This document shows positions 7,176 to 54,319 of a stretch of DNA of 64,000 nt, piece after piece. Source of the stretch: Candidatus Uhrbacteria bacterium (GTDB taxonomy: Bacteria; Patescibacteriota; Patescibacteriia; UBA9934; GWF2-40-263). How positions within the stretch are numbered: position 1 is the first letter of the stretch; every line of letters starts with the position of its first letter. The stretch covers positions 138 to 64,137 of the forward strand of contig JACPHT010000001.1 in the NCBI GenBank assembly GCA_016188475.1, in the 5' to 3' direction. The translations under genes and the position numbers were made by a program. The notes under the pieces were generated by a model. It was not told where the DNA came from and did not search any database. It saw nothing but the letters and a program-made list of their open reading frames with translations.

Positions 7176-7712
7176 TTATTTCGTAAGAGGGAGACCGAGA
7201 TGTTTAAGTAGAGCTTCCGCTTCTTTGTTAGACTTTGCTGTTGTTCCAATCGTTACTTGCAAACCATGGATCATTTCAATTTCATCACTTCTGATTTCTG
7301 GAAAGGCTGTATGTTCTTTAAAACCGATTGAGTAATTTCCATTTCCGTCAAAAGCTTTTGGTGAAAGCCCGCGAAAATCTCTAACACGCGGGAGCGACAC
7401 ATTCAAAAGCTTGTCCAAAAACGTCCACATTCTTTTTCCTCGCATTGTAACTTTCATTCCAACTACCATTCCTTCGCGAATTTTGAAAGCTGAAATTGAT
7501 TTGCGAGCAAGTGTCTTAACTGGTTTTTGACCAGTAATGCGTATTAACGTTTGTTCTGCTGTTTCCATGTACTTTGCATCTTTCAATCCTGGACCAATTC
7601 CAATATTAAGCGTAACTGCTTTCATATTTGGAACAGCGTTCACGTTTTTATACCCAAACTCTTTCATAAGTTTGGGAACGATTTCTTTTTTGTATGTCTC
7701 TTTCAAAGCCAT
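7176..7712 (-). CDS. rplE: 50S ribosomal protein L5
   Basis: 178 aa; L5 signature, position after rplX. Confidence 0.9.
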
Positions 7713-40828: not shown

Positions 40829-40844
40829 ATTTATTGCACTAGGC

Positions 40845-40935
40845 CGGAAATAAATTTCAGATAATGTATCGTGGAAGCCGAAGTTTGTCGTAGCGTAGCG
40901 TAGACAAATTTGCGTGAGCGAGCGTTAAAAATTAT
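40845..40935. other. attC-like imperfect palindrome (outermost recognisable cassette junction)
   Basis: AGCGTAG-rich dyad ending in a GTTAAAA-type box between two minus-strand genes. Confidence 0.35.
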
Positions 40936-40939
40936 TTTC

Positions 40940-41170
40940 TTATACCAAAAAACCATATTCTATTATTAACCCTATGACAAGAAGACTGAGTCCTACAAAG
41001 AATGAGGCCCACCATGGGTGATTTTTTATCTCTTGGCTAAAATGTTTGAGTCGAATGAGTTTGGTATTTTTTCCTGAAGTCTTAACGGTGGGCCGATTAC
41101 CAATAAAGTCACAGTCTTCGACTGTACAGTTATCTCCAGTAATATCTATAAATGGTTTTTTGTCTTCCAT
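40940..41170 (-). CDS. cassette-encoded small membrane protein
   Basis: 76 aa; C-terminal TM helix. Confidence 0.4.
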   Translation of the reverse strand: MEDKKPFIDITGDNCTVEDCDFIGNRPTVKTSGKNTKLIRLKHFSQEIKNHPWWASFFVGLSLLVIGLIIEYGFLV

Positions 41171-41209
41171 AAGAAAATAATTTTTAGCGAGCTAGCCGGC
41201 TAGCCAGTG

Positions 41210-41663
41210 TTAAGTGATGTTGCACACTATTTTCTCGGATTCTTTTAGGATTGTTTTGGCCAATGATCGTTCTTTGCTTGTTGTGGGATGAAAATGTATT
41301 TCTGTTTGATATTTTGGCCACTGATCATGCTGAACACGGAAAAAATGGACGATCTCTGCCTCAATAGCTTCAACATGAACACTATCCTCGAAAATCCATA
41401 CAATCAATGAGTGATCGCCATCTTCTTTTAGCCATTTATAACCATGATAGCCTGTTTTGTGATTTGGCTTTACGCCATACCGAATACGAGAACTCATTGA
41501 TTGTTTTGTGATGCCTACATAGTTAATGAGTCCATTTTTTCCGACCAAATATATCTTTTTTCCCTTTTTCGTGACCGGAGCTACAAAATGTCTGATTCCG
41601 TCATTGGCCAAAACAGAAACAATCTCATTATCCTTTACTTTGATTTTGTAAACAAAGTTCATA
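41210..41663 (-). CDS. cassette-encoded GIY-YIG nuclease-like protein
   Basis: KIYLVGKNGLINYVGITKQSMSSRIRYG fits the GIY-x10-YVG-T...R pattern; start at ATG 41663, with GTG alternative at 41680. Confidence 0.5.
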
Positions 41664-41680
41664 ATAGTGCGCAATTTCAC

Positions 41681-41819
41681 TTAACGGCCGGCGGCTGATC
41701 CGAAGTAAAAAGACACCTGACGTTTTTATGTTACAGGTGTCTTTTTATTTTGGATAGCCGCCTGTTGTGCGACGTCGCTTTGCGACGGAGCGCAACAGAG
41801 GCGAAGCCGCCGGCATAAC
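41681..41819. repeat. cassette-junction element, copy 1 (short variant)
   Basis: TTAACGGCCGGCGGC...AAAAAGACACCTG-acgtttttatgtta-CAGGTGTCTTTTT...GCCGCCGGCATAAC. Confidence 0.85.
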
Positions 41820-41882
41820 GTTTGCGTGTATGCGGTGTGGCGTCAGCCATATCGTATACACGCTGTTGTACGGAGTTTGGGC

Positions 41883-42065
41883 TTATCCTTCTCTTGCTTC
41901 TCTTTCTGCTTCGATTTTTTCCAATATCTCTCGTACTTTTTCAGGAGACGCACCAAGCTCTTCGAAGAATCTTACTTGGTCCGATGGAGGAATGGCCATT
42001 AATTTATCCAGGGCATCTTTGGCCTCAGACTCTTGAACTTCATGCTCTCGTGGTTGTTCTCTCAT
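41883..42065 (-). CDS. cassette-encoded small acidic protein
   Basis: 60-aa ORF flanked by attC-like palindromes. Confidence 0.3.
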   Translation of the reverse strand: MREQPREHEVQESEAKDALDKLMAIPPSDQVRFFEELGASPEKVREILEKIEAEREAREG

Positions 42066-42211
42066 ATGTTTAACTTGTTACTGATAAATAGCTAATGTTT
42101 AAATAATAGGATAAGACCAAATTTCGTGCAACGTTCGCGTATGATCCGACGTGATCGACCAGAGGGAGATCATGTTGGATATACGCTGTTAAGCGCCGTA
42201 CTCATTAACAA

Positions 42212-42448
42212 TTACATCGAAGAAAACGGGTCTCCGCATTGAGGACACCTGTCTGAGTTAACTAATCCGTAACTGGTTTTGCAATTTGCGCAATATACAT
42301 TTGCTGCACTTGTACGTCCGTTGGGATCTGGAACCATGGGCACTTTGCATTGAGAGCAAAGCAACTCATTACTGCCAGCGACGGCGGCAATATCAACTGT
42401 ACTATTGCATTGTGGACATTTGTACCCAAAAAATGAACCTGTTTGCAT
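42212..42448 (-). CDS. cassette-encoded zinc-ribbon protein (four CxxC pairs)
   Basis: CPQCN...CSQCK...CANCK...CPQCG. Confidence 0.5.
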   Translation of the reverse strand: MQTGSFFGYKCPQCNSTVDIAAVAGSNELLCSQCKVPMVPDPNGRTSAANVYCANCKTSYGLVNSDRCPQCGDPFSSM

Positions 42449-42466
42449 ATTTTTTCTTATTAAGAA

Positions 42467-42982
42467 TTAGGAACCTATATAAGTTGCAGTGATGTTTCCT
42501 TCTCCCTCGGCTGTGGATTTTGTGCCAGGTTTGAAAAATGTAGGCTTGGTTGTTTTGATGCCAGTTACATTACCTTTGCCTCTAGCAGTGTGTTCGCCGT
42601 CGATGGTAGTAATGAGAGAATTTAAACTTTTGTTCAAATTCTGGGTGGCCCACTCTTCATGCTCTTTTTTCCATTGTTTTAGTTGATCTACAGAGAAATC
42701 AATGCCATTATTTTTGTCGATCATATCAGCACAATTTGAACAAAGAAAAATACCATTATTTGTAGATTTTCTCTGTTCTGATGTTAAGTTTGAGTCATAT
42801 CTTGGGCCACCCTCTGCCGCAGCGGTTATATGGGCTGCTTTGCCTATGTATATAAATTTGTCCTCATTTTCTGCTGATGGGCAAAGTGTCAAATTTTTGC
42901 AATCAGGATTTGAGCAGATATAGGAGGCCCGTTTTCCTATTGCTTCAACTGTATTTTTATCAAATTCGTCTCGAGTTGACAT
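42467..42982 (-). CDS. cassette-encoded HNH endonuclease-like protein
   Basis: CSNPDCKN...AAHI...NGIFLCSNCADMID resembles the HNH beta-beta-alpha-metal motif. Confidence 0.45.
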   Translation of the reverse strand: MSTRDEFDKNTVEAIGKRASYICSNPDCKNLTLCPSAENEDKFIYIGKAAHITAAAEGGPRYDSNLTSEQRKSTNNGIFLCSNCADMIDKNNGIDFSVDQLKQWKKEHEEWATQNLNKSLNSLITTIDGEHTARGKGNVTGIKTTKPTFFKPGTKSTAEGEGNITATYIGS

Positions 42983-43007
42983 AATTTTGTATGTTAATGG
43001 GTATGGC

Positions 43008-43179
43008 GCTTAACGGCCGGCGGCTGATCCGAAGTAAAAAGACACCTGACGTTTTTATGTTACAGGTGTCTTTTTATTTTGGATAGCCGTCTGTTGTGCG
43101 ACGTCGCTTTGCGACGGAGCGCAACAGAGGCGAAGCCGCCGGCCGTTATGCCGATAGAGCAAAGCGATGTCGGCATAAC
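43008..43179. repeat. cassette-junction element, copy 2
   Basis: Near-identical to the other six copies. Confidence 0.85.
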
Positions 43180-43307
43180 GTCCCGCACTTTGCGATGTTT
43201 TGGCCTGTTATAATTTAGCACGAAGTGCTTGAACAGGCCAAAATATGGGCGTAGCGACTGAAAGGAGCGGAGCCGCAAAGTGCGTGTTAAGTGATGTTTT
43301 TATTTTT

Positions 43308-43931
43308 TCAAAGTATGCCAATTGGGCCGATTATTCTAAAGCCCTTCCGAATTGTTTCTTCGGTGTTGATTTCCCAGCACAGTGTCCCATTATAATCCAA
43401 GAATGAAACACCTAAAATTGCGTTATTTCGGGAGGGCGTTTTACTTGCTTTTTCTTGTATAGAATCAAAAATCTTCTTGGTCTTTCCCTTCATATTTTGA
43501 GGAAATTGTACCGGTTTTCTTTGTAGTTCATATGTGACTAAAAATTGCACAAATTTTTTCCAATTTGCTCGTTCACTTAGGAGTGCTCTACTAATGTTTA
43601 GTTCATCGCAGAGATTTTCAATGTTCGTTTTGAGCAAATGAAGGGAAAGACCTTCAATTACGGCGTCATTAATCCAAGTTCCTTCATTTGGATTTTTGTT
43701 ATGAGCGATCACCGCATCTGTTAAAAGTTCCAAAATTCTGAAAGCCGTAATTGAACCGGAGATTTTTGTGTGCAAGGCCCAATTGGCATACAAATTTAAG
43801 TATGGATATTTAGACTGGAAGCCTTTCTCTTCAATGATGTGCCGAAAGGCTGTCATTATTCGGAGGATATCATTTTTACTCCAATTACTATGCGAGAGTA
43901 ATTCTGTGATGTTTTTGATGTGATCTTCCAT
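43308..43931 (-). CDS. cassette-encoded hypothetical protein
   Basis: 207-aa ORF flanked by 27-bp inverted repeats that begin with GTTAAGTGA. Confidence 0.5.
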   Translation of the reverse strand: MEDHIKNITELLSHSNWSKNDILRIMTAFRHIIEEKGFQSKYPYLNLYANWALHTKISGSITAFRILELLTDAVIAHNKNPNEGTWINDAVIEGLSLHLLKTNIENLCDELNISRALLSERANWKKFVQFLVTYELQRKPVQFPQNMKGKTKKIFDSIQEKASKTPSRNNAILGVSFLDYNGTLCWEINTEETIRKGFRIIGPIGIL

Positions 43932-43949
43932 ACTTAAATTTGAAAAATA

Positions 43950-44035
43950 AAAATTTCACTTAACGTTTCGCGATATCCGACGTTTCGTAGAAATGTGGCT
44001 TTAGCCTTTACGGATATCGCGTGTTAGGCGAGGCT
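43950..44035. other. canonical attC-like site
   Basis: ACTTAAC-GTTTCGCGATATCCG...CGGATATCGCG-T-GTTAGGC: RYYYAAC and GTTRRRY boxes with complementary inner arms. Confidence 0.6.
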
Positions 44036-44064
44036 TCAGCTCTTGAGTTTGAATTTAAACTTTT

Positions 44065-44460
44065 TTAATATTTATCCTTAATGTATTTAAGAACTTCTAT
44101 ATCGTGGTCAATAATCTTTAGCTTGTTTATCTCGGAAAGATGAAACCAACCAAAATTTTGTCCTTCGCCTAAAGTAATTATTTTACTCGGATCAAATTCT
44201 TCCACAAAAACATGTTTTTCATTGGTTTCATCTTTCGACAAAAAATCTTGCTTCATTATCATCTTAGGGTTTTTGAGTGTGTAATTCAGCTCTTCAAGTG
44301 TTTCTCGCTTCACAGCCTGTTCTGGAGTTTCACCAGCTTCAATACCGCCACCGAAAAAAGCCCAATATCCAGGCAACCTTTCAGCATCTTCAGCACGATG
44401 TTGAAGTAAGATTTTTTTGTCTTGGTCGTATAAAATTATAATAGCTACGTTTCTCGCCAT
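44065..44460 (-). CDS. cassette-encoded NUDIX hydrolase
   Basis: Nudix box GGGIEAGETPEQAVKRETLEELNY; ORF flanked by 26-bp perfect inverted repeats TTTGAATTTAAACTTTTTTAATATTT. Confidence 0.8.
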   Translation of the reverse strand: MARNVAIIILYDQDKKILLQHRAEDAERLPGYWAFFGGGIEAGETPEQAVKRETLEELNYTLKNPKMIMKQDFLSKDETNEKHVFVEEFDPSKIITLGEGQNFGWFHLSEINKLKIIDHDIEVLKYIKDKY

Positions 44461-44518
44461 ATAGAAGTTCTTAAATGTTAAAATAAAGAAATATTAAAAA
44501 AGTTTAAATTCAAATTTC

Positions 44519-44690
44519 GCCTAACGGCCGGCGGCTGATCCGAAGTAAAAAGACACCTGACGTTTTTATGTTACAGGTGTCTTTTTATTTTGGATAGCCG
44601 CCTGTTGTGCGACGTCGCTTTGCAACGGAGCACAACAGAGGCGAAGCCGCCGGCCGTTATGCCGACAGAGCAAAGCGATGTCGGCATAAC
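44519..44690. repeat. cassette-junction element, copy 3
   Basis: Near-identical copy. Confidence 0.85.
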
Positions 44691-44921
44691 GTTCGTGTGT
44701 ATCTGAAGTTTTCATTCCGCTTCAATGGAATAAACTTTGATTATTAGATACACGCTTTTTAATAGAACCCCACCCAAATCCTCATCAAAACTAAGGGATG
44801 AAAATTTGGGCGGAGGAAAATTGGCACTCCTTAAGGATTTAATTAACGCCAATTTTCCATAGCCAGATACACGCTGTTATACGCTGTAATAAAAAGCCGA
44901 TTCGTTATTGATTTTGGCAAT

Positions 44922-45164
44922 TTATTTTTCTGTTTTGGAACCAAGAAATTTTCCCTCCACTACAACATCTTGTAATGCATTGAATAATTGAAGAACGCCG
45001 TTGCGGTGTTCCTCATTAACTTGAGGAAGTATTTCTTGAGTTAAACGAGCAAGACCTTCTGTAACTTTCCCTTTTGCATATTCTGGTAATGCTTTCATAT
45101 TGGGAGTCAATTCTACTGATAGCGAGGCTTTTGCGCCAACCTCTGGCCTGAATGTTTCTGTCAT
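44922..45164 (-). CDS. cassette-encoded hypothetical protein
   Basis: 80-aa ORF. Confidence 0.35.
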   Translation of the reverse strand: MTETFRPEVGAKASLSVELTPNMKALPEYAKGKVTEGLARLTQEILPQVNEEHRNGVLQLFNALQDVVVEGKFLGSKTEK

Positions 45165-45274
45165 ATTTTTTTAAGTTAATTATTACTTTGATTATACTAT
45201 GAGTTATACTCGACCGCTTCAAATAAATTGCCAAAATCAATATTCAAATTTCACAATCGGCTTTTTATTATGGC

Positions 45275-45446
45275 GTATAACGGCCGGCGGCTGATCCGAA
45301 GTAAAAAGACACCTGACGTTTTTATGTTACAGGTGTCTTTTTATTTTGGATAGCCGCCGGTTGTGCGACGTCGCTTTGCGACGGAGCGCAACAGAGGCGA
45401 AGCCGCCGGCCGTTATGCCGACAGAGCAAAGCGATGTCGGCATAAC
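45275..45446. repeat. cassette-junction element, copy 4
   Basis: Near-identical copy; terminator hairpin at 45303-45347. Confidence 0.85.
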
Positions 45447-45689
45447 GTTCCTGCGTATGCGATGTTTGCCAGTGGTATAATTGCACGAAGTGCTTACCAC
45501 TGGCAAATATGGGTGGAGGCTTGCGGAGGTACGAAGCAAGCCGTAACCGCATACGCAGTGTTATATGATGTACATGTTTTCCTTTAATTTCTGAAAGAAA
45601 TTGCTCTTATAAAAGAATCCGGTTTTGTTTTTCCGTTTGGGGCGAAGGGCAGAGGGGATTAAGGGGTGAATGCCCGAGCCCCAAACACT

Positions 45690-46298
45690 TTAATCTTCTT
45701 CACCCTCAATTCTTTTTCTGCGCTCATCTAGCGTTTCGCCTTCATACATCCAATAAGCTGTTCCTTGAATTCCGTAATCATAACCGAGAATTTTTTGTGC
45801 AGAAGAAGAAAGACTTGTAACTTTGCCATTAAAATTGATGGATTTATTATCAACCACATTTGCCTTAATGTTTTCATCGCGACTAAAAATTAATTCTGCA
45901 CCAACCGGAATGTTGACCATCTTAAAATTAAACTTAGCTCGCATTTCTGCACGTGCTTGATTTAGGGCATGCTGATCTTCTTTTGATTCCACGAAGTCTT
46001 TTTTAGGCGTAATATCTTCAATCTCTGCCAATTTAAGTGCAGAAACTACACGTTCTGGAGAGATTTGAAAAAATTCTCGTCTTGGATTTGTTCGGTTATT
46101 GTCAAATGCATCATGTAGCTGATGTTCAACAAAGGCTGCGTCTTTTACGGTACATGCGTAGAAACAAGTAAAAGGAAGTGGAACGCTCGTGGAAGCGCTA
46201 AGCTCTCTAATCCTTTGCTCAAGGCTTGTTGAAGTTTTGCCAATTTTTACATATCCAGGCATGGCTTCATTGATGAGAATGTAGATGATTTCAATCAT
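45690..46298 (-). CDS. T5orf172 (GIY-YIG-like) domain protein, second gene of the candidate defense pair
   Basis: IYILINEAMPGYVKIGKT...RIREL...PLPF...RREFF matches the T5orf172 pattern; start ATG overlaps the upstream stop (ATGA). Confidence 0.6.
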   Translation of the reverse strand: MIEIIYILINEAMPGYVKIGKTSTSLEQRIRELSASTSVPLPFTCFYACTVKDAAFVEHQLHDAFDNNRTNPRREFFQISPERVVSALKLAEIEDITPKKDFVESKEDQHALNQARAEMRAKFNFKMVNIPVGAELIFSRDENIKANVVDNKSINFNGKVTSLSSSAQKILGYDYGIQGTAYWMYEGETLDERRKRIEGEED

Positions 46299-48013
46299 AA
46301 TTTTATAGATTTATTTGGTGCTAAAAGTTCCTTAATTTTTGAAATTAAAGGTTTGAAATTCCCAAAAGTATCCGAGCTGGTTTCAGCTTGAACTTTATTT
46401 AAAAATTTGCCTTTATCGAAAGTGGTGATTGACGTAGTTGCACTATATGAGCCAGGTCTTACTTCCGTAGAGTAAACGTCATCTGTGAATAAGGTATCGG
46501 GGTATAGATTTTCAATGCCAACAGCTTTTCCATCTTTATCTTTAGCCTTTGTATTTGCAGAATTTTCCGCAAAGCAAAACTTTTTAAAGCTTTCTGTTTC
46601 TGTAATGCTGTTTATCATGGAGGCGCAGTCACAATCCCAAACAAAAAGGAACTTTCCGCTAAAATCACCGGACGACATTACGTCAAAAGCGTTTTTCAAC
46701 TGTTGCCCGCGCTTATCTGGCGAACCTTCTATAATTTTAATTTGACTAAGTAAAGTGTTGTCGAGGATTTCAAAAGCTTTTTTAATATGCTCTGTATTAT
46801 TTCCCTCCGTAACAATTTGTAAACTTTTCGTGCCATCAATCTCTTTTTGTATTTTTAAACCCTTTTCAAAGGTTATGATCCCCTCGCTTAAAAGGTTAAT
46901 AGCGTCTCCCTGTGATATTTTTCTGATTTTTTCATTTTTTTTGCCCTTCTGTATCTCAAATAGTGATTCTTCATATGCTAATGCGACCGTGGTCGGAGAA
47001 TGGGTAGCAAGAATAACCTTACAGCCGTTTTTTATGAACACATTTTGAATCACATCCAATAAATCTTGAATCATGGATGGATGAAGTGATGCATCTACTT
47101 CATCAAGAAGTAACAATGCAGGAAATTCTGATTTGTTATCTTGATAAACTGTAATAGCCAGTGCGCACAATATCTTTTCACCCGATGACAAGTCTTCAAA
47201 ATCAATTTCTTCATCATCTATGGAGAGTTTTACTTGAAATGATACAGCTTGACTATTTATCAGATCTCCAGCTGTAAATTCTGGATGTGAAATAGTATGA
47301 AGTAGCCCAAACTCTTTAAACATGCTGTTTACAAAATTCCATGGAGATTGTTCTTCTATTTTTTTGATTTGGCTATCGTTTAATCCTTCTCCGCCGTCGC
47401 TTTCTCTTAATTTTGCCACGGTTAGTTTTTTTTGATAATCAAGAAAAACTTCGCTTAAACTTTCTAGAAGCTCGTACTCATCTGGGCTGTAGTTTGAAAA
47501 TTTAAAAAATTCTGCCTGTGTGATTTCCGAAGCGTATTTAACAGACTCGAATACGCCCGTTTTTAAAAGCTTCTTAATTTTGGGATTATCTTTTGTATGC
47601 TTATTTATAAAGGTTAGAATATCCTTTTTTTGTTCAGCGTATTTTTGTTTTTGTGCTTTTGGCACTTCAAAATCATAGGGGTACTCCTTTTCGCCCACGA
47701 ATGTTTTAATTTGATTGTCGTAATTTTGGAATTGTTGCCTTTGAGAATTTAAGATATTCCACGCTTGCATTTTTTCATCATCAAGATTCCGTGGGGCAAT
47801 TTTAGCCTGGTTCTTTATGAGAAATGTTTGTAGGTTAAAGTACGAAATCCTTTCTTTTTGTATGTTGTCAGCTGAAACAAAGCCCTCTTGCATCGCCTTG
47901 AGCAAGTGAGTTTTTCCAGCGCCGTTTACACCTAGAAATATCGAAAAGTCCTTAATATCAATTTCACTAAAGTTGGCGATTGATTTATGTTTTTGATTGA
48001 ATTTAATATTCAT
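46295..48013 (-). CDS. OLD-like ABC-type ATPase fused to a C-terminal TOPRIM-like nuclease domain
   Basis: Walker A GVNGAGKTHLLKA, ABC signature LSSGEKI, Walker B LLLLDEVDASLHP, H-loop ATHSP; C-terminal IVTEGNNTE ... FVWDCDC resembles TOPRIM Glu and DxD. Confidence 0.6.
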   Translation of the reverse strand: MNIKFNQKHKSIANFSEIDIKDFSIFLGVNGAGKTHLLKAMQEGFVSADNIQKERISYFNLQTFLIKNQAKIAPRNLDDEKMQAWNILNSQRQQFQNYDNQIKTFVGEKEYPYDFEVPKAQKQKYAEQKKDILTFINKHTKDNPKIKKLLKTGVFESVKYASEITQAEFFKFSNYSPDEYELLESLSEVFLDYQKKLTVAKLRESDGGEGLNDSQIKKIEEQSPWNFVNSMFKEFGLLHTISHPEFTAGDLINSQAVSFQVKLSIDDEEIDFEDLSSGEKILCALAITVYQDNKSEFPALLLLDEVDASLHPSMIQDLLDVIQNVFIKNGCKVILATHSPTTVALAYEESLFEIQKGKKNEKIRKISQGDAINLLSEGIITFEKGLKIQKEIDGTKSLQIVTEGNNTEHIKKAFEILDNTLLSQIKIIEGSPDKRGQQLKNAFDVMSSGDFSGKFLFVWDCDCASMINSITETESFKKFCFAENSANTKAKDKDGKAVGIENLYPDTLFTDDVYSTEVRPGSYSATTSITTFDKGKFLNKVQAETSSDTFGNFKPLISKIKELLAPNKSIKL

Positions 48014-48192
48014 AGTTTACTTCAAGTGTGGAAATCACAAATTGGCGTTATTTTACTCCGTTTCCTCCTATAAATAAATCGTTTTCGGAGCGGAGCGTAG
48101 AAAACTCCTTATTTCCCCTCTATAAAAAAAGAAAAACAAAACCGGATTCTTTTTAAGAGCTTGGCGAAGCCAAAAAGGAAAACATGTATTTC

Positions 48193-48340
48193 ATATAACG
48201 GCTGGCGGCTGATCCGAAGTAAAAAGACACCTGACGTTTTTATGTTACAGGTGTCTTTTTATTTTGGATAGCCGCCTGTTGTGCGACGTCGCTTTGCGAC
48301 GGAGCGCAACAGAGGCGAAGCCGCCGGCCGTTATGCCGAC
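48193..48340. repeat. cassette-junction element, copy 5
   Basis: Near-identical copy (CGGCTGG variant at the left arm). Confidence 0.85.
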
Positions 48341-48481
48341 AGAGGCGGAACAAAAATTTGGGAGAAGGAATTTTTCTTACCTTGAATTATAAATGTGAAA
48401 AATTCCTGAACCGGATATGCCGTGTTGTGCGATGTCCGCATTTGCCCGCCCTTGTTAGTTGGAAATGGATGCCCCGAAATC

Positions 48482-49060
48482 TTATTGCAAAATCTTTTCC
48501 AATAGTTCAGGAAACTCCTCGGTTTTCATATCGCCCAAGCAGTAATGACCTCGCCCTTTTAGCTCGACAATCTCGCCACCAAGCACCTCATGAAAAATTT
48601 TTAAACTTTTTTTACCGTCTTCCTCCTCGTCGTCCGCAGTGAACATAACTATTTGATTTATCCTATCCTTGATAGACGAGTCAATCTGATATGTATAGAA
48701 ATTTACATCGGTACCACTTCTTTTTTCTTGCGGAATTTTCCAAGGCGCGACTAAAAAAAGTTTAAAAATTTTGGTCTTAGTCTCACTAAGCCAGCGAACC
48801 AAGAAGGCGCAACCGCAACTATGTCCAACTAAAATTGTGTTTTCATCAACAGTATATTTTTCAAATTCAGCCTTAAATTTTTCATAATCAGGTTGCCAAG
48901 GCGAGGGCATGAGAGGAGTTTCCGTTTCAATATTTTTTGCAATAAGATTTCTTTTTAACCACGGAATCCAGTGCTTGTCATAAGTCCTTGTTTCAGGATT
49001 CATCGCTTTTTCAGCATCAGAGGGGCATCCATGGATTATGATACATCTATTCTTTGTCAT
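48482..49060 (-). CDS. cassette-encoded alpha/beta hydrolase (RBBP9/YdeN-like serine hydrolase)
   Basis: IIIHGCPS ... LVGHSCG nucleophile elbow. Confidence 0.55.
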   Translation of the reverse strand: MTKNRCIIIHGCPSDAEKAMNPETRTYDKHWIPWLKRNLIAKNIETETPLMPSPWQPDYEKFKAEFEKYTVDENTILVGHSCGCAFLVRWLSETKTKIFKLFLVAPWKIPQEKRSGTDVNFYTYQIDSSIKDRINQIVMFTADDEEEDGKKSLKIFHEVLGGEIVELKGRGHYCLGDMKTEEFPELLEKILQ

Positions 49061-49325
49061 ATGGTTGAATGTTATTTTTAGCACTAGGGCAAATGCGGAT
49101 TTCGCACAACGTATCCAAATATCTGAAGTTTCGCACTTTGGTTTTAAGGCTAAAATCTTTGATATCCAGACTATTTTGTTAGTTTAATTATACTATACAT
49201 TATCACAAAACGGAAAAGTGCGAAATTTGGGTCGAGAAAATTTTTCACTCTTTATTATTTCTAATAAATGAAAAATTTTGGAGCCAGATATTTGGTGTTC
49301 AACGATGTTGCGAGGATTTTCGTTT

Positions 49326-49547
49326 TTATTTCTCAGAATGTTTTAATTTAATCAAATCATATATTGCAGAAACGGTAAAAATAATTTGCAAAATAATAAA
49401 TATTAAATCGCTTAGGTAAATACTGTATATTTCCAGGCATACTCCGCCAACAATATACATCAAGTCCTGCGTACGACGATTTTTATTTATAATGCCAGCG
49501 GATATTAATAATAATCCGACCGCGCCTATCATCTTAAAAATTGACAT
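49326..49547 (-). CDS. cassette-encoded small membrane protein
   Basis: About 73 aa; three hydrophobic helices. Confidence 0.4.
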   Translation of the reverse strand: MSIFKMIGAVGLLLISAGIINKNRRTQDLMYIVGGVCLEIYSIYLSDLIFIILQIIFTVSAIYDLIKLKHSEK

Positions 49548-49594
49548 ATTATTTTGCAAATTATTTTGTTTTCAGGAAAAAATCCTCGCAATTT

Positions 49595-49700
49595 CGTTGA
49601 ACGTTCACCGATAAGCGAAGTTTTATTGAGCAAAGCGAAATAAAATTTGCGAAAAACTCGGGCTGAGAGTTTTTCCGCTTATCGCGTTGTTATACGCCCC
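49595..49700. other. attC-like site
   Basis: TTGAAC-GTTCACCGATAAGCG...CGCTTATCGCG-T-GTTATAC. Confidence 0.55.
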
Positions 49701-49758
49701 GAGCGAAACGAAGTGTAGCGAGAGCGCAGCGTGGTGCGGAGCGTAGCGGAGCAAGTTG

Positions 49759-50262
49759 CTAATTTGCCCGTTTCATCTGCTGGACTTTTTTTAAAAACAC
49801 AATATCTCTTTGCTGAATAAAAGAACCCTCATAATTTGTTGGTTTATCGTTTTCAACTTTGGAAATTGCTTCATCTAATGGCAACCAAACGAGTTTAAAG
49901 TTTTGGCTTAATTCCTCTTCCGTGAAAGCAGGCGACCCTTTTGATGTTATTTTGCCTATATAACAATAGGATATTTGTTTCAAATTGAAATTTGAACGAT
50001 ATTCAATAATTTCCCCAACTTCACCAGTGACTTTAATTTCACTCCCGACTTCTTCCATAACTTCGCGGACCAGAGCTGCGGCCTTATTTTCGCCATCGTC
50101 GATTCCGCCGCCAGGTAATTTGTGATAGTTATAATTTGAAACAAATAGAAGAGGAATTAAGCCATTCTCGTCAAAAAGCACAGCTCTTGATGCTTCTCTA
50201 ATTTCCAAAGTTGATTCATCTTTAGGCCACTCTTTGTCTTTTATCTCGTGTAATAGTTCCAT
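49759..50262 (-). CDS. cassette-encoded NUDIX hydrolase
   Basis: Nudix box GGGIDDGENKAAALVREVMEEVGSE. Confidence 0.8.
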   Translation of the reverse strand: MELLHEIKDKEWPKDESTLEIREASRAVLFDENGLIPLLFVSNYNYHKLPGGGIDDGENKAAALVREVMEEVGSEIKVTGEVGEIIEYRSNFNLKQISYCYIGKITSKGSPAFTEEELSQNFKLVWLPLDEAISKVENDKPTNYEGSFIQQRDIVFLKKVQQMKRAN

Positions 50263-50323
50263 AGTAAATTATGAGGGTTCTTTATTTTTATAAATGTATC
50301 GGCAAGGGCAAATTAGCAATTGC

Positions 50324-50468
50324 GTATAACGGCCGGCGGCTGATCCGAAGTAAAAAGACACCTGACGTTTTTATGTTACAGGTGTCTTTTTATTTTGGAT
50401 AGCCGCCTGTTGTGCGACGTCGCTTTGCGACGGAGCGCAACAGAGGCGAAGCCGCCGGCCGTTATGCC
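50324..50468. repeat. cassette-junction element, copy 6
   Basis: Near-identical copy. Confidence 0.85.
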
Positions 50469-50549
50469 ATTACCGCCTAAGCGAGAGAAGGATGGCGTAT
50501 ACGCGCTGTTGTACGATTGCAGAACACCAACTTGAATTATGTAATCTTG

Positions 50550-51158
50550 CTAAATAGTAGTATGGACAAAGTCGTAAAATTGAGAAAAGTCTTTGACGAC
50601 AATAGACGGATTGCCGTTAATTAAATTTTGTTCATTTTGGTAACCACCAAGAATTCCAACAATTATTTTCACACCAACCTTCTTAGCTTCAGCAATATCT
50701 CCGGCTGTGTCGGTAATAAAAGTAACATTATTGGGTTCCAGAGCATATTTTTCAAATAGCATCTTAAATTTTTCTACCTTGCTTGTATGAACCTCATTGC
50801 CAAGAATCTTTTGAAAACAGGATAGTATGCCATGGCTCTGAAGATAGTCTTGAATGATATCACTTCGAGTACTTGAAATAATAAATAGTTGGAACTCTTG
50901 TGATAATTTTTGAATAAAGTCTTTCTTTTTTGAATCAATACCTAAATGTTTGAAACGGTCCCCGTACTCTCTAAAAAAGTCTATTTTTTTTACGACTTTG
51001 TCCTCGTATTTTACTTCATTAATATTACCATTGAAGGCATTTTGATATCGCTCCAAAGTTAAAGTTGGCCTTGAGAGCTTATTCACTTCAAAAGCTATGT
51101 CAAAACTATCAGCGATTACTCCATCAAAGTCGAAGATAATAGTAGGCTTATGATCCAT
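50550..51158 (-). CDS. cassette-encoded HAD-family hydrolase
   Basis: IIFDFDGVIADS motif I (DxDG). Confidence 0.7.
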   Translation of the reverse strand: MDHKPTIIFDFDGVIADSFDIAFEVNKLSRPTLTLERYQNAFNGNINEVKYEDKVVKKIDFFREYGDRFKHLGIDSKKKDFIQKLSQEFQLFIISSTRSDIIQDYLQSHGILSCFQKILGNEVHTSKVEKFKMLFEKYALEPNNVTFITDTAGDIAEAKKVGVKIIVGILGGYQNEQNLINGNPSIVVKDFSQFYDFVHTTI

Positions 51159-51189
51159 AGATCTTAAATAAAAGGGTGTTCTGCTTTTC

Positions 51190-51305
51190 GTACAACGTTC
51201 GCGCATAAGCGATGTTTGCCAGTTGTATAATATGCCGTTAGGCTTACAACTGGCAAATATGGGTGGAGCGACGAGGTACGAGGAGCGGAACCGTTTATGC
51301 GCTGT
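51190..51305. other. attC-like site
   Basis: GTACAAC-GTTCGCGCATAAGCG...CGTTTATGCGC-T-GTTAAGT with internal TTTGCCAGTTGTA/TACAACTGGCAAA dyad. Confidence 0.55.
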
Positions 51306-51326
51306 TAAGTGATGTGTTTGAGAATT

Positions 51327-52034
51327 CTACTTCAAATAGGTTTCCAGATTTTTGACCATTCGCCCCACATAAAGGTTTAGGCTTTTTTGGCCAATTTCCT
51401 TATTAACAATCCAATCGGGATGATTATCTGCAATTCCATTCGGACTTTTTTCAGCTATATTATCAGTTTCAAAGGCATCTTCGATGAAGGTCTTTTTTTC
51501 GTCTTTGCTTGGCGGAATGACAGTCGCTTCATCTATTACCATCATGTTTGAAATTTCGGTATTGCCTGCATGTCCATCTGATGGACCGCCAAGCATTTCA
51601 ACAAGCTTTTGTTCATCCTCATCGTTGCACATCTCAAGATGAACTATTTTAGCGGGCTGAAAAAAGTCCGATTTTTCTCGGATAAACTTTTGAATATATG
51701 GGTCATTATGATGAAACGATGTAATGAAAATATAATCTGCTTTTTGAAAAATAGAATTGCAGATATCAAACATTACTTGAGCAAGTGTTTCTTCGGTAAG
51801 ATAGACTGTGCCAAAAAAGCCACGGTGCTCTTGTGCACGAGAGAACTCTAACGTTGGAAGAATTACCAGCTCAGGAAACTGTTTCTCAACTTGATCAACA
51901 AGATAGTCAGTAATATACGTGTCAGTACCGAAGGGGGCGAATGGTCCATGTTGCTCAAGCGAACCTATTGGAACGACGAAATTGTATTTTGTATCACCAG
52001 ATAAATCTGGAAACCTCATTCTTTTTAATCTCAT
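51327..52034 (-). CDS. cassette-encoded creatininase-family amidohydrolase
   Basis: VVPIGSLEQHGP ... GTD ... GHAGNTE motifs. Confidence 0.65.
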   Translation of the reverse strand: MRLKRMRFPDLSGDTKYNFVVPIGSLEQHGPFAPFGTDTYITDYLVDQVEKQFPELVILPTLEFSRAQEHRGFFGTVYLTEETLAQVMFDICNSIFQKADYIFITSFHHNDPYIQKFIREKSDFFQPAKIVHLEMCNDEDEQKLVEMLGGPSDGHAGNTEISNMMVIDEATVIPPSKDEKKTFIEDAFETDNIAEKSPNGIADNHPDWIVNKEIGQKSLNLYVGRMVKNLETYLK

Positions 52035-52065
52035 ATTTTTAGTATAGATGAATTCTCAAACATTT

Positions 52066-52214
52066 CACTTAACGGCCGGCGGCTGATCCGAAGTAAAAAG
52101 ACACCTGACGTTTTTATGTTACAGGTGTCTTTTTATTTTGGATAGCCGCCTGTTGTGCGACGTCGCTTTGCGACGGAGCGCAACAGAGGCGAAGCCGCCG
52201 GCATGTCGGCATAA
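52066..52214. repeat. cassette-junction element, copy 7 (short variant), proximal to the recombinase
   Basis: Near-identical copy about 155 bp from the recombinase start. Confidence 0.85.
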
Positions 52215-52371
52215 CTAGTAAATATACGAACTTGTGTCGGATAAAATACTTTGAAAATGAATTATATGATGTGAGTAACCTGCGTTGACAAGTACATGAA
52301 ATCATGTAACAATAAGATTGTAAATAACCTCCTATTCTAATCTTGATGGGCGGTTTTTTTATATCTTCAAT

Positions 52372-53202
52372 ATGTTTTTAATTTCTAATACCGAACAAGC
52401 GTTGTTGTCTATTGACCAACTTCTACGCATAAAAAATTACAGTCCAAAAACAATAAAAAGTTACAAGGGCTGTTTGGCTAGATTCTTAAAACAGTTTCCT
52501 GATTGTTTGAACTATTCAAACATCGAGTGTATCAAAACATTCCTTTTATCCATGCGCGAATCTGGATTATCTCCTCAAACTATCAATGTACATCTTCAGG
52601 CAATACAATTTTATTTTCGTGAAATCTTACATCAACCATTCCGTTTCACTCTACCATACGCAAAACGACCGAAACGGTTGCCTGTCATACTTTCTAGATC
52701 AGAAATTGAACAAATTCTAAACCATATATCAAACACAAAACATAAAACCATGATCGCTCTGGCTTATGGGGCGGGACTCCGTGTCTCTGAAGTGGTTGAG
52801 TTGCGCTCTGGAAACGTAGATTTTCCTTCCGGAGTTTTATATATTTATCAAAGTAAAGGCAAAAAAGATCGTATAACAATTCTTCCAGAAATATTGCGCG
52901 ATGAATTACAAAAAGCGGTTTGTGGAAAATCACCGAACGATTATCTTTTTGCCAGCGAACGAGGCGGACGTTTGTCTGAACGTTCAATTCAAAAAGTATT
53001 TTCTCGTGCGCTTCATTCAACACAGATAAACAAACAAGCAACATTTCATTCACTGCGTCATAGCTTCGCAACACACGTTTTGGAACAAGGAACTGACATC
53101 AGATTCATTCAAAAACTTCTTGGCCATGCAAATATTAGAACAACACAAATTTACACTCACGTTTCAACAGCTTCTATCAGTGCAATCAAAAGCCCGCTAT
53201 AG
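52372..53202 (+). CDS. tyrosine site-specific recombinase, integron-integrase-like (XerC/D superfamily)
   Basis: R...HSLRHSFATHVLEQGTDIRFIQKLLGH...TTQIYTHV catalytic core; LPVILSRSEIEQIL and GAGLRVSEVVELRSGNVDF...YQSKGKKDRIT segments resemble IntI as recalled; transcribed divergently from the cassette array; appears to lack the long IntI-specific insertion. Confidence 0.7.
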   Translation: MFLISNTEQALLSIDQLLRIKNYSPKTIKSYKGCLARFLKQFPDCLNYSNIECIKTFLLSMRESGLSPQTINVHLQAIQFYFREILHQPFRFTLPYAKRPKRLPVILSRSEIEQILNHISNTKHKTMIALAYGAGLRVSEVVELRSGNVDFPSGVLYIYQSKGKKDRITILPEILRDELQKAVCGKSPNDYLFASERGGRLSERSIQKVFSRALHSTQINKQATFHSLRHSFATHVLEQGTDIRFIQKLLGHANIRTTQIYTHVSTASISAIKSPL

Positions 53203-53212
53203 ACAAAATAAT

Positions 53213-54319
53213 TTATTCCCGTGAGAGCCACCTCTCAGCATCAAGAGCGGCAACACAACCCGAACCGGCGGCTGTGACAGCTTGGCGATAATACGGATCA
53301 ATCACATCGCCTCCAGCAAATACTCCTTCAACACTTGTTTTTGAAGTGTTTGGTTTCACAACAATATATCCTTTGCGATCAAGTTCAAGTTGATTGACAA
53401 ACAAATCTGTGTTTGGTTGATGTCCAATCGCGACAAACAATCCATCAGCGGAAAAATCTGAAACAACGTTTGTGACATTATTCAAAACTCGAACTGCATT
53501 CATTCTTTTTCCATCGCCTAGAACCTCTTGAACTTCTGTGTTAAACATAAATCCAATCTTCGGATTCTTCATCGCTCGCTCCTGCATAATCTTTGACGCG
53601 CGCAACTCATTTCGTCTGTGTATCACTGTTACTTTGCTTGCAAAATGTGTAAGAAAATTCGCTTCCTCCATTGCCACGTCTCCGCCACCAACCACAATAA
53701 CGTGCTTGTCCTTGAAAAAAAATCCGTCACACGTTGCGCATGCGGAAACGCCGCGACCTTGATATTCTTTTTCACCTGGAACATTCAACCACAATGCTTT
53801 CGCGCCAGTACAGATAATAATCGCTTGGCTTGAATATACCGCTTCGTTTGTTTTTACAATAAATGGTAAAGATTGCTTCGCGGAGTTTACAATGAACGAA
53901 GATAAATTTATGCCTTCGACAAGCTCAGGCAATAAATTTGTCTGGGTCGAATGACTCGAAATGATATTTTTTTGTTCGACAAGCTCAGGCAATAAATTTA
54001 TAGGAGTCAAAGGGCTCGTAGTGACGGTCTTTTGTCGAGCGGAAAAATCAACTGAAACCACATCGTCGCTCACAATTCGAGTTCCAAATCGTTCAGCTTG
54101 TTTCTTGAAACGTTCCATGAGTTCTGGTCCAATTAACCCTTCTGGAAATCCGGGAAAATTTTCAACTTCGTTTGTTAACATCAACTGCCCTCCAGGCTGT
54201 CCGCCAATCTGTTTTCCTTCAAACAAAAGCGGTCGCAACTGCGCGCGCGCCGCGTAAATTGCCGCCGTATATCCAGCCGGACCAGAACCGATAATGATAA
54301 GATTTTCTGACGTACTCAC
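53213..54319 (-). CDS. trxB: thioredoxin reductase carrying an in-frame palindromic-element insertion
   Basis: GSGPAGYTAAIYAARA FAD motif, CATC redox site, GGGDVAMEEA NADPH motif. Confidence 0.9.
   Translation of the reverse strand: MSTSENLIIIGSGPAGYTAAIYAARAQLRPLLFEGKQIGGQPGGQLMLTNEVENFPGFPEGLIGPELMERFKKQAERFGTRIVSDDVVSVDFSARQKTVTTSPLTPINLLPELVEQKNIISSHSTQTNLLPELVEGINLSSFIVNSAKQSLPFIVKTNEAVYSSQAIIICTGAKALWLNVPGEKEYQGRGVSACATCDGFFFKDKHVIVVGGGDVAMEEANFLTHFASKVTVIHRRNELRASKIMQERAMKNPKIGFMFNTEVQEVLGDGKRMNAVRVLNNVTNVVSDFSADGLFVAIGHQPNTDLFVNQLELDRKGYIVVKPNTSKTSVEGVFAGGDVIDPYYRQAVTAAGSGCVAALDAERWLSRE
53872..54010. repeat. palindromic element (one full copy plus one partial copy) inserted in-frame in trxB
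   Basis: Cores GCCTTCGACAAGCTCAGGC at 53912-53930 and GTTCGACAAGCTCAGGC at 53974-53990; encodes NLLPELVEQKNIISSHSTQTNLLPELVEGINLSSFIVNSAKQS. Confidence 0.8.

Follow-up and report, generated by a model that had tools for sequence, protein, structure and literature searches.

The chromosomal locus described here is, on the evidence of its sequence, a real integron-style cassette array in Candidatus Uhrbacteria, a small-genome member of the Patescibacteria (CPR), and it is probably a sedentary array that works like an integron, with a Xer-type tyrosine recombinase lacking the I2 domain as its platform. Within the 64 kb of DNA analysed (the window), the array runs from 52215 down to about 40865 and holds about 19 units in a single orientation downstream of an attI site, with all genes on the minus strand and imperfect palindromes between them. 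The recombinase gene (52372..53202, plus strand) is divergent from the array, with attI in between. An earlier note had described an integron-like platform of at least 14 minus-strand cassettes with a recombinase at these coordinates on the opposite strand, and both points are borne out, the former by the attC-like architecture of the junctions. These palindromes read RYYYAAC-stem-loop-stem-GTTRRRY, and it is precisely at G|TT that one cassette gives way to the next; in the clean-boundary ORF-bearing cassettes (n = 12) the G lies at 52073, 51196, 50330, 49602, 49110, 48199, 45281, 44525, 43964, 43014, 42132 and 41685, and two more cassettes near the end of the array (41187-40865) are degenerate.

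A strict scan of the window for junction sites (AAC-1 nt-10 bp stem...stem-4 nt-GTT) returned 10 matches, compared with a mean of 2.18 in dinucleotide-preserving shuffles (n = 50), and seven of the ten, each with NNAC|GTT at its end, fall in the 41.8-51.3 kb stretch of the minus strand. Each unit begins with G|TT and an XerD-like arm (TTRYRYGAAAT) and closes with that arm inverted (ACATCRYRYAAC) and then a hairpin particular to the cassette, the 3' half of which is an XerC-like arm (TCGCATAY); the start-arm motif GTTRNRYGMMAT occurs 14 times, on ten occasions at a cassette start. As the earlier note had proposed, every cassette opens with the inverse complement of the sequence at its own end, a circular permutation of ends across a G|TT crossover: the R box matched its own end at 9/9 positions in 11 of 12 cassettes, and the outer 14 nt matched the cassette's own end at a mean of 10.1 positions vs 4.1 for the ends of other cassettes. 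The exchange point can be fixed at G|TT because seven copies of a repeated cassette lose identity exactly there, and because attI conservation ends there in three related loci (L001, L003 and L004).

Canonical attC sites carry extrahelical bases and a 5-nt unpaired spacer (PMC5027507). In the junctions reported here the L stems are fully paired, with no extrahelical bases, and a 1x4 internal loop stands in place of the spacer. The R box is part of a longer, 11-nt XerD-like arm in which a 2x2 mismatch is conserved, and beyond it lies a cassette-specific outer stem of 12-15 bp, for which pairing is possible only in the excised circle. The reconstituted circle of cassette 2 folds at -38 kcal/mol (z = -8.6), and that of cassette 15 at -22.4 kcal/mol (z = -5.6) vs -16.6 kcal/mol (z = -1.0) for its array junction. 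Compensatory changes were found in 9 of 12 L stem pairs, with a covariation score reached by none of 500 shuffles, and 95.6% of cells were paired compared with 21-44% in controls slid by 1-3 columns, a percentage that is inflated because the scanner by which the sites were picked demands a stem. Some attCs are truncated or degenerate.

From this anatomy we infer recombination activity, a choice of strand and a single-strand mechanism. An excised cassette would be a circle joining its two ends, one strand of which would fold into a long hairpin made up, in order, of outer stem, right-arm duplex with its conserved 2x2 mismatch, 1x4 internal loop, left-arm duplex and variable loop. The folded attC is thus predicted to mimic a dif-like duplex, in which right-arm-bound recombinase would cut the bottom strand at AA|C (top strand G|TT); a single strand would be exchanged with attI or another attC, and replication would resolve the junction, as in integrons and CTX-phage integration. 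Alternatively, duplex dif-like sites might recombine without single-strand folding, with genes between inverted Xer sites swapped as duplex modules, as has been proposed for Acinetobacter pdif modules. In its favour, two duplex dif-like sites lie in inverted orientation within every junction, the one on the R'' side is spaced exactly 11-6-11 when the bottom strand is read, and I2, the domain credited with making single-strand recombination possible (PMC4792948, PMC7790495), is missing from the recombinase. We nevertheless regard this reading as unlikely, since the L''/L' and outer stems are cassette-specific yet complementary, for which a shared protein-binding consensus offers no explanation and which suggests that a hairpin or cruciform has been selected for; central regions of 6, 7 and 9 nt would also fit poorly with a complete exchange of both strands.

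Housecleaning enzymes, small proteins and defence genes make up the cassette content, all of it on the minus strand. An ORF-less cassette of about 140-165 nt (type B, repeat family D1) recurs in seven copies with terminator-like hairpins, and may insulate the units from one another. Cassette 1 (52073..52214; families D1 and D2) is the first copy, its 5' hairpin partly deleted, and folds at -44.7 kcal/mol (z = -9.1) into a three-way junction with a terminator-like hairpin. Pfam, PADLOC and the site scan place a creatininase-family gene (51327-52034) and a type-A attC (R'' 51310-51304, R' 51196-51190) in cassette 2 (51196..52072). Cassette 3 (50330..51195) encodes a HAD hydrolase and has a truncated attC (R'' 50514-50508) fused to type-B copy 2, and cassette 6 (48199..49109), with a serine hydrolase, is built likewise (R'' 48430-48424, fused to copy 3). 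Between them lie a NUDIX gene (49759-50262) in cassette 4 (49602..50329; attC R'' 49695-49689, R' 49602-49596) and a 77-aa membrane protein in cassette 5 (49110..49601; repeat family D12), whose 190-nt attC has a -10-like box, ATAGTATAAT, in its loop. Cassette 7 (45446..48198, type-A attC) is a two-gene defence unit whose 5' leader, some 150 nt long, is conserved and homologous with L003, L006 and L009; Pfam and PADLOC uphold the functions given in the earlier note except for its 'GIY-YIG nuclease', which is a T5orf172 protein (PDC-S57) paired here with an AAA_21 ATPase (AriA/PtuA-like).

Further down the array, type-B copies 4 (complete), 5 and 6 form cassettes 8 (45281..45445), 10 (44525..44689) and 13 (43014..43178), while copy 7, its 5' hairpin deleted, forms cassette 16 (41685..41818). 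Hypothetical proteins with type-A attCs occupy cassettes 9 (80 aa; 44690..45280) and 12 (207 aa; 43179..43963), and homologues of the latter occur in other gene contexts. A second NUDIX gene (44065-44460) with a short attC at 44029-43958 (covariance model R1, 31.5 bits) lies in cassette 11 (43964..44524). Cassette 14 (42132..43013) pairs an HNH protein (PDC-M68A-like) with a double zinc-ribbon protein, and its attC (42194-42126) scored 17.1 bits with the same model as a site outside the training set. In cassette 15 (41819..42131) a 60-aa protein is accompanied by an attC of 48 nt. Cassettes 17-18 (40865..41684; repeat pair I24), with 156-aa and 76-aa proteins, make up the old end of the array; their attCs are degenerate, with GCTAAAA and ATTATCT as mutated R' boxes. 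The cassettes had been called promoter-less in the earlier note, but are probably not: several cassettes and attC loops contain sigma-70-like boxes, and many cassettes seem to have promoters of their own.

The attI site (52215..52273, minus strand) was delimited by alignment with L001, L003 and L004, in which conservation holds up to ...AG|TT and is lost after it, with a different first cassette in each. Its crossover lies between G52215 and T52214, G52215 being 157 nt from the recombinase start codon, in keeping with the candidate attI suggested earlier between the recombinase and the first junction. The site comprises a conserved accessory box CACATCATATAAT, a box TATCCGA, an XerC-like arm AAGTTCGTATA and a 7-nt central region ending AG, beyond which comes the XerD-like arm TTRYRYGAAAT. 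Judged against the published A. baumannii dif/pdif, ACTTCGTATAA-TCGCCA-TTATGTTAAAT (PMC7399989), attI reads as a dif-like site. Next to it is a candidate promoter for the recombinase gene, TTGACA-17-TGTAACAAT (52285..52313, plus strand, from sequence), with a palindrome between its -35 and -10 boxes, ACATGAAATCATGT, that might serve as an operator. A promoter directed into the array, TTGTCA-19-TATAAT on the minus strand, was picked out by eye as a further candidate and would overlap the same -35 box. Conservation of TGTCAA and CACATCAnATAAT in this region spans four lineages.

Comparison with relatives shows cassette turnover. L001, with a recombinase 81% identical, has the trxB-trx-infB-truB-rny flank synteny and attI in common with the window and carries five different cassette genes; a further array, that of L088, contains the same repeat alongside yet another set of genes, and none of the window's cassette genes was present in any of the relatives' arrays. 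Layouts of the same kind occur beside recombinase homologues 48-63% identical in other Uhrbacteria, Peregrinibacteria and an unclassified MAG (L004, 62%; L003, 61%; L006, 55%; L009, from Peregrinibacteria, 54%; L039, 48%). Against the preferred reading, a homologous cassette in L089 retains the R'' arm without the remainder of the site. The neighbourhood of the recombinase varies between lineages.

The recombinase (276 aa; Xer-like/IntI-like in NCBIfam and PDB comparisons) retains the catalytic R-K-H-R-H-Y residues and a C-terminal IKSPL motif. The 42-aa IntI-specific I2 insertion is absent, as the earlier note had suspected, and the KGxKxR-to-LRHSFA spacing is 66 aa vs 108-109 aa in true IntIs. 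IntI and XerA_Arch profiles both matched, below both curated cut-offs: XerA_Arch narrowly (214.5 bits; cut-off 220), TIGR02249 IntI at 205.7 bits (cut-off 265) in two stretches, and PRK15417 at 127 (cut-off 435). Its best PDB match was VchIntIA (2A3V; 146 bits, in two stretches skipping IntI residues 181-240), with XerA at 143.6 bits, and in a rough NJ tree it fell within a clade specific to Patescibacteria, apart from the IntIs, which were monophyletic. Because of the failed cut-offs and this position, we take the protein, on its sequence, to be a member of a Xer-like family and not an IntI. The structure of the locus supports the distinct integron-like lineage that the earlier note had thought possible.

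This family is very common, almost ubiquitous, in Patescibacteria (7701 matches at E<1e-20), and a published classification treats the candidate-phyla Xer-like subgroup 'Cand' as a putative dimer resolvase (Smyshlyaev, Barabas & Bateman), from which it follows that the recombinase could be a housekeeping enzyme that is merely nearby. The attI would then be the chromosomal dif and the array a pile-up of IMEX-like elements integrated there, a view in keeping with a textbook dif-like attI, the narrow XerA_Arch miss and a search of the window that found no second recombinase gene. Single-recombinase Xer systems with dif beside the gene do exist (XerS). The position of the locus is, however, not terminus-like: genes on either side up to 56.7 kb are on the same strand, and the sole strand switch is divergent and coincides with a cumulative GC-skew minimum at about 57-61 kb that looks like an origin. 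In L004 the recombinase gene is 2-3 kb from parA/parB, the neighbourhood is not constant between lineages, and the cassettes hold single genes, none with a role in replication or phage biology. We consider this account quite unlikely, although it overlaps the preferred one because one enzyme could do both jobs.

It is very improbable that the locus is a canonical integron with a true IntI and ordinary attC sites, for which the R''/R' consensus, G|TT crossover, divergent integrase, attI, co-oriented cassettes, VchIntIA match and shared C-terminal SPL motif would speak; the reading is refuted on its defining domain, as I2 is missing, and the profile scores, the tree and the L box and 1x4 loop described above also stand against it. 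Scarcely credible, too, is the absence of any recombination system, with the palindromes being terminators or repeats of REP/MITE type in a defence island of variable content that happens to adjoin a Xer gene: the type-B repeat does carry a terminator-like hairpin and defence and toxin genes abound in the arrays, but G|TT boundaries are exact, ends are circularly permuted in every cassette, the attI break-point is conserved across lineages and a like arrangement accompanies homologous recombinases in five other lineages.

As a probable sedentary array on a Xer-type platform, the locus resembles chromosomal integrons such as the Vibrio superintegron in a tyrosine recombinase gene that points away from attI, cassettes by the dozen that share an orientation and mostly hold one gene, RYYYAAC...GTTRRRY imperfect palindromes with G|TT exchange, attC sites homogeneous within the array, ORF-less cassettes, a content of defence genes, toxins and small enzymes, and turnover between relatives. 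It differs in the recombinase, R box, outer stem, L stems and spacer loop set out above, in its dif-like attI and CPR host, and in cassettes that seem to come with promoters and terminators of their own. With CTX-phage-type IMEX, which use XerCD at dif and a folded single-strand attP of two inverted dif-like sites, it has in common a Xer-type enzyme without I2, a hairpin substrate mimicking the dif duplex and a dif-like target, and one strand exchange with resolution by replication is the natural inference for the Uhrbacteria array; here, in contrast, recombinase gene, site and long array are linked, the mobile units are single-gene cassettes and not phages, and the site is unlikely to be the terminus dif. 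Acinetobacter pdif (Re27) modules, for which a hairpin-plus-replication model has also been proposed, likewise bracket genes with inversely oriented XerC/XerD-type arms of nearly identical sequence (ACTTCGTATAA / TTATGTTAAAT); however, pdif neighbours share a single 28-bp site, whereas Uhrbacteria junctions hold two inverted sites and a covarying hairpin, and pdif modules are plasmid-borne and unlinked to xer genes, whereas this array is chromosomal and headed by its recombinase. The 'Cand' subgroup, going by its published description, is Xer-like, arm-less and confined to candidate phyla, which would fit the relatives of this recombinase, but that classification does not describe a cassette array or attC-like sites.

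No description of an I2-less Xer-type integron was found in the literature searched. A folded-dif Xer state of this kind has been proposed as the ancestor of integrons (Escudero et al. 2016), and a recombinase without the domain thought essential for integron integrases, coupled with sites that would fold into dif-like form, bears directly on the origin of integrons.

In gene sense, which is the minus strand, successive ORFs of the array are separated by junctions of the pattern RYYYAAC-A-stem...stem-NNAC-GTTRRRY, so that an imperfect palindrome of R''/L''...L'/R' boxes lies at the 3' end of ORF-bearing cassettes (type-A attC). The earlier note had described such RYYYAAC...GTTRRRY palindromes, and they withstood a strict scan (AAC, 1 nt, a 10-bp stem with ≤1 mismatch, 4 nt, GTT), which returned 10 sites in the window against a mean of 2.18 in 50 dinucleotide-preserving shuffles. 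Seven of the ten are minus-strand sites at 41.8–51.3 kb, all with NNAC preceding GTT; the other three look like chance matches. L-stem covariation pointed the same way. Among 15 sites from the window and from relatives' loci L001, L009 and L088, cut to one shared frame, 95.6% pairing was seen in the 12-pair L helix, with both-side changes in nine pairs, compared with 21–44% in slid controls; choosing the sites with a stem-requiring scanner inflates the percentage paired, and leaves the diversity of compensated pairs unaffected. The covariation score of the whole attC structure exceeded that of all 500 shuffles. A home-made covariance model (R1), which finds short-loop sites only and copes poorly with long loops, gave seven matches at E ≤ 1 in 64 kb, all at 41.8–51.2 kb and one of them outside the training set, and matched only L088, L001 and L039 in 1.09 Mb of other loci. 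Loose palindrome scanners were unusably noisy, and tightening the search to RYYYAAC/GTTRRRY with perfect 7-bp stems gave no sites in true-IntI loci. Compared with the canonical attC (PMC5027507), whose unpaired features are extrahelical bases near L'' and a central spacer of ~5 nt, the L stems here have 0–1 mismatch in 10, extrahelical bases are absent from the L box, and a 1x4 loop (1 nt facing 4 nt) replaces the spacer.

Of the 14 occurrences of the start-arm motif GTTRNRYGMMAT in the window, 10 fall at cassette starts. Setting the opening 30 nt of each of the 12 ORF cassettes against its final 30 nt, reverse-complemented, bore out the claim that a cassette begins with the inverse complement of its own end: the first 9 nt agreed at 9/9 positions in 11 of the 12. 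Positions 10–11 hold a conserved mismatch (AA at the start vs TG in the reverse-complemented end), and the following 14 nt matched their own end at a mean of 10.1 positions vs 4.1 for the ends of other cassettes. The outer stems are cassette-specific and can therefore pair only when the two ends of one cassette meet, as in an excised circle, which is the signature of circular permutation. Folding supports this pairing, since the reconstituted circle attC of the creatininase cassette forms a 13-bp outer stem, 2x2 loop, 9-bp R box, 1x4 loop, L stem and terminal structure at −38 kcal/mol (z = −8.6), and that of the cassette for a 60-aa protein reaches −22.4 kcal/mol (z = −5.6) as a circle compared with −16.6 kcal/mol (z = −1.0) as an array junction. 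The substrate would presumably be a folded single strand, with exchange of one strand only.

The exchange point can be placed between G and TT, where the earlier note had put the crossover, on two independent grounds. Seven differently flanked copies of an ORF-less cassette (type-B repeat, ~140–165 nt) lose their identity on the right exactly at ...GCCGCCGGCCG|TT, and the four complete copies start on the left at G|TTATGCC. Independently, the stretch that separates recombinase gene and array, previously put forward as a candidate attI, is conserved in L001, L003 and L004 (81, 61 and 62% recombinase identity) up to ...AG|TT, beyond which each has a different first cassette. The attI of L003, AGTTCGTATAA-AAACCAG-TTATGTGAAAT, reads as a duplex target with two 11-nt arms on either side of a 6–8-nt centre, with an equivalent in the window (AAGTTCGTATA-TTTACTAG-TTATGCCGACAT), and the dif/pdif site of A. 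baumannii is ACTTCGTATAA-TCGCCA-TTATGTTAAAT (PMC7399989). Similar attI sites were found in L001, L004, L006, L009, L010, L012, L015 and L039, and in the Woesearchaeota locus L025. From this comparison of attI with dif, the cassette starts (TTRYRYGAAAT) are XerD-type arms; the 3' halves of the hairpins (ACTTCGCATAT, CATCGCATAC, ACTTCAGATAT) are XerC-type arms. In the folded site the R''-bearing strand is spaced 11-6-11, and the other strand has three extra bases, the NAAC loop. G|TT on the top strand corresponds to a bottom-strand AA|C, the point at which a recombinase sitting on the XerD-type arm would cleave, and integrons exchange at the same position.

Several irregular sites were also seen. 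Two truncated type-A attCs are fused into the middle of a type-B copy (50467-50514 and 48340-48430), and the first and last type-B copies have lost part of their 5' hairpin; all of these look like slippage deletions across hairpins. In L001, an attC encloses a DpnI-like ORF (2303-1728), with L'' CGGCATATCTG to one side and L' CAGATATGCCG to the other, and a second-level inverted repeat (GTTCAAAAATTTTCACTC/GAGTGAAAATTTTTGAAC) also brackets the ORF. At positions 1-120 of the same locus, the GGCCGGCGGC...GCCGCCGGCC element has its loop in inverse orientation relative to all seven type-B copies of the window. The site is nearly symmetric, and either strand may serve for its recombination. Several CPR lineages (L008–L012 and L039) share another conserved motif, TTCGTATAATATACAA, made of two inverted CGTATA half-sites and placed between attI and the start of the recombinase; it may serve as an extra binding site or operator.

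Given its dif-like arms, could attI be the chromosomal dif itself? Probably not, as suggested by the 64 kb available. Nearly all genes from 1 to 56.7 kb are on the minus strand, GC skew keeps its sign from one side of the array to the other with no switch at it, and the closest strand switch, at ~57 kb, is divergent and coincides with the cumulative GC-skew minimum; this evidence of skew and gene strand, which over 64 kb speaks weakly against a replication-terminus position, led us to mark the idea down. In addition, parA/parB adjoin the recombinase locus in L004, and the gene neighbourhoods of the recombinase are unlike one another between lineages. The change of gene orientation from minus to plus at ~56.7–61 kb, with infB/truB divergent and the cumulative GC-skew minimum there, may mark a replication origin about 4–5 kb from the recombinase gene. 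The window holds no tRNA or tmRNA genes.

The recombinase gene (52372-53202, plus strand) heads the array, which occupies about 40.9–52.2 kb on the minus strand, and is followed by trxB, trx and infB. An NCBI entry of a Candidatus Uhrbacteria bacterium, on a 64.7-kb contig, has exactly this protein sequence. Catalytic residues (pentad + Tyr) are conserved, as is a C-terminal IKSPL motif common to this family and IntI. Profile alignment upheld one part of the earlier assessment, the distinctness from IntI: NCBIfam IntI TIGR02249 scored 205.7 bits in two stretches (cut-off 265) and NF011946 127.4 bits (cut-off 435). On the Xer side, XerA_Arch (NF040815) at 214.5 bits fell narrowly below its cut-off of 220, with XerC at 180 bits and XerD at 173 bits. 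In a rough neighbour-joining tree (midpoint root, no support values) IntIs were monophyletic and the window protein fell in a separate CPR clade. Among PDB structures, VchIntIA 2A3V aligned at 146 bits in two stretches that skip IntI residues 181–240, Pyrococcus XerA at 143.6 bits and XerD at 92 bits. The suspected lack of the long IntI-specific insertion was confirmed, as KGxKxR and LRHSFA stand 66 aa apart vs 108–109 aa in ten true IntIs, including Vibrio; homologues from CPR, DPANN, Bacteroidota and other phyla in which both motifs were found have 64–73 aa. With that additional domain (the I2 helix around patch III) absent, scores below the IntI cut-offs and a position outside the IntI clade, the protein was rejected as an IntI. 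The family is very large in Patescibacteria and fits the ‘Cand’ subgroup of Xer-like enzymes, which Smyshlyaev and colleagues saw in candidate phyla only and regarded as putative dimer resolvases.

A candidate recombinase promoter at 52285-52313 (plus strand) has a palindrome, ACATGAAATCATGT, between −35 and −10, and in L006 and L007 lexA lies immediately 3' of the recombinase gene, beside dinB; together these hint at SOS-type control of the recombinase, as in classical integrons. The adjacent trxB (53213-54319) encodes a thioredoxin reductase of 368 aa vs 313 aa in L001 and 328 aa in L002, and contains a 60-nt tandem duplication (53897-53999) that repeats the segment ...NLLPELVE....

Cassettes turn over among relatives, as had been anticipated. 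L001 keeps the trxB-trx-infB-truB-rny-HU flank and has five unrelated genes beside attI (138-aa, DpnI-like, dCMP deaminase, 237-aa and DUF1653), and a further array, L088, detected with the repeat core, has different content (Fic + antitoxin, SDR, MazG-like, NUDIX); no window cassette gene occurred in the fetched arrays of relatives. A metagenome scan with the repeat core yielded a single contig. Homologues of hyp207, the 207-aa hypothetical protein of cassette 12 (43179..43963, minus strand), lie in four different neighbourhoods, one of which keeps an identical outer stem and R'' arm; with sites partly decayed or incomplete, their placement is a weak pointer to mobility. Relatives' contigs very often break off upstream of the recombinase gene, a few hundred bases away at most, consistent with assembly effects of repeats and strain variation. 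The full layout (recombinase, attI ending AG|TT, cassettes that open with TTRYRYGAAAT and close with ACATC...AAC, and hairpins with the NNAC spacer) recurs across lineages: in Uhrbacteria-type relatives L004 (62% identity to the window recombinase) and L003 (61%), in Uhrbacteria L006 (55%), in Peregrinibacteria L009 (54%; two attCs with near-identical loops) and in the unclassified bacterial MAG L039 (48%), whose recombinase groups with the CPR clade. Further afield, short I2-less homologues (38–43% identical) in L018, L021, L027, L038, L055 and L085, from Spirochaetota, Firmicutes and Bacteroidota, have attC-like palindromes (RYYYAAC...GTTRRRY..CAT) downstream on the recombinase-gene strand, and may represent a wider class of I2-less array-linked recombinases outside CPR.

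Products of the window cassettes include a creatininase family protein, a HAD protein, two NUDIX proteins, a serine hydrolase and small membrane or unknown proteins. A T5orf172 protein matching candidate defence family PDC-S57 (6e-73) is paired with an AAA_21 ATPase (AriA/PtuA-like), and an HNH protein matching PDC-M68A is partnered by a zinc-ribbon protein; relatives carry type III restriction-modification as well as Shedu-like, DpnI-like and Fic genes. The earlier view of the cassettes as promoter-less is now doubtful. The attI does contain a Pc-like TTGTCA-19-TATAAT (read by eye). Type-A attC loops share TTTGCCAGTGGTAAGC...ATTATACCACTGGCAAA holding a TTGCCA-18-(TG)nAATTAT box of sigma-70-like appearance that points downstream, and ATAGTATAAT boxes occur in two cassettes. 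The type-B cassette folds into a three-way junction (−44.7 kcal/mol, z = −9.1) whose arm AAAAAGACACCTG...CAGGTGTCTTTTT looks, in the predicted fold, like a bidirectional terminator; because this element comes first after attI, read-through from a platform promoter is unlikely. A generic promoter and terminator scan showed no enrichment over shuffles, and Rfam gave nothing at gathering thresholds and, at E ≤ 1, only spurious miRNA-type hairpin matches on the repeat. Many cassettes would seem to have promoters of their own.

A conserved 5' leader of ~110–150 nt was also noted in the window (48020-48150, minus strand), in the first cassette of L003, in L006 (~1110-1190) and twice in L009 (~5680-5760 and ~7190-7230). 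Common to several CPR classes and without an Rfam match, it consists of GAGGGGAATAAGG, a GTTTTC-N13-GAAAAC hairpin, an AT-rich stretch and GGAGG, and stands upstream of unrelated genes, mostly of defence type; it could be a cis-regulatory RNA or promoter module travelling with cassettes.

The locus thus combines features of integrons, CTX-phage-type Xer integration and pdif modules. In pdif modules, neighbours on plasmids share one 28-bp XerC/D site in alternating orientation; each junction here has two inverted sites joined by a 48–190-nt hairpin on a chromosome. In IMEX and CTX-phage, the mobile unit likewise has a folded site of two inverted dif-like sites and uses Xer without I2; the unit itself, however, is a phage, plasmid or island that brings replication or transfer genes of its own and depends on an unlinked host Xer, whereas here the cassettes are of single genes and the recombinase heads the array. 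Integron-like are the attI adjoining the recombinase gene, insertion at G|TT, the imperfect R''/L''...L'/R' palindromes of the attCs, and conserved flanks with cassette content that differs between close relatives. In function the locus would be alike to a sedentary chromosomal integron, provided that the window recombinase performs the reaction, as we infer; we have not filed it as an integron in the strict sense because the IntI domain and profile tests failed. Escudero et al. (2016) proposed an ancestral state in which a Xer-like enzyme acts on IMEX-like elements, and by analogy the locus resembles that state. Our search for literature on integron-like arrays with Xer-like integrases in CPR, Patescibacteria or DPANN found no description.

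We therefore advance, as a tentative reading that falls a little short of probable, that this is a natural integron built on a Xer-type recombinase without I2, widespread in CPR and possibly present in DPANN archaea and Bacteroidota, whose hairpin sites are folded mimics of dif. It would be either a surviving relative of the Xer-plus-IMEX state proposed as the source of integrons or an independent second invention of the integron, and the same enzyme might be the cell's only Xer. The ability of integron integrases to recombine folded single strands has been attributed to acquisition of the I2 helix (PMC4792948, PMC7790495); if our reading is true, under either origin I2 would not be needed for recombination of hairpin cassettes. 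Integron surveys require the I2 domain, and such arrays would therefore be reported at best as orphan attC clusters. The locus would offer a concrete, testable system for the origin of integrons from Xer/IMEX-type recombination, and would extend integron-style gene capture to CPR, whose tiny genomes were not known to carry such platforms. It would also suggest cassette exchange as a route for defence and housecleaning genes of these episymbionts.
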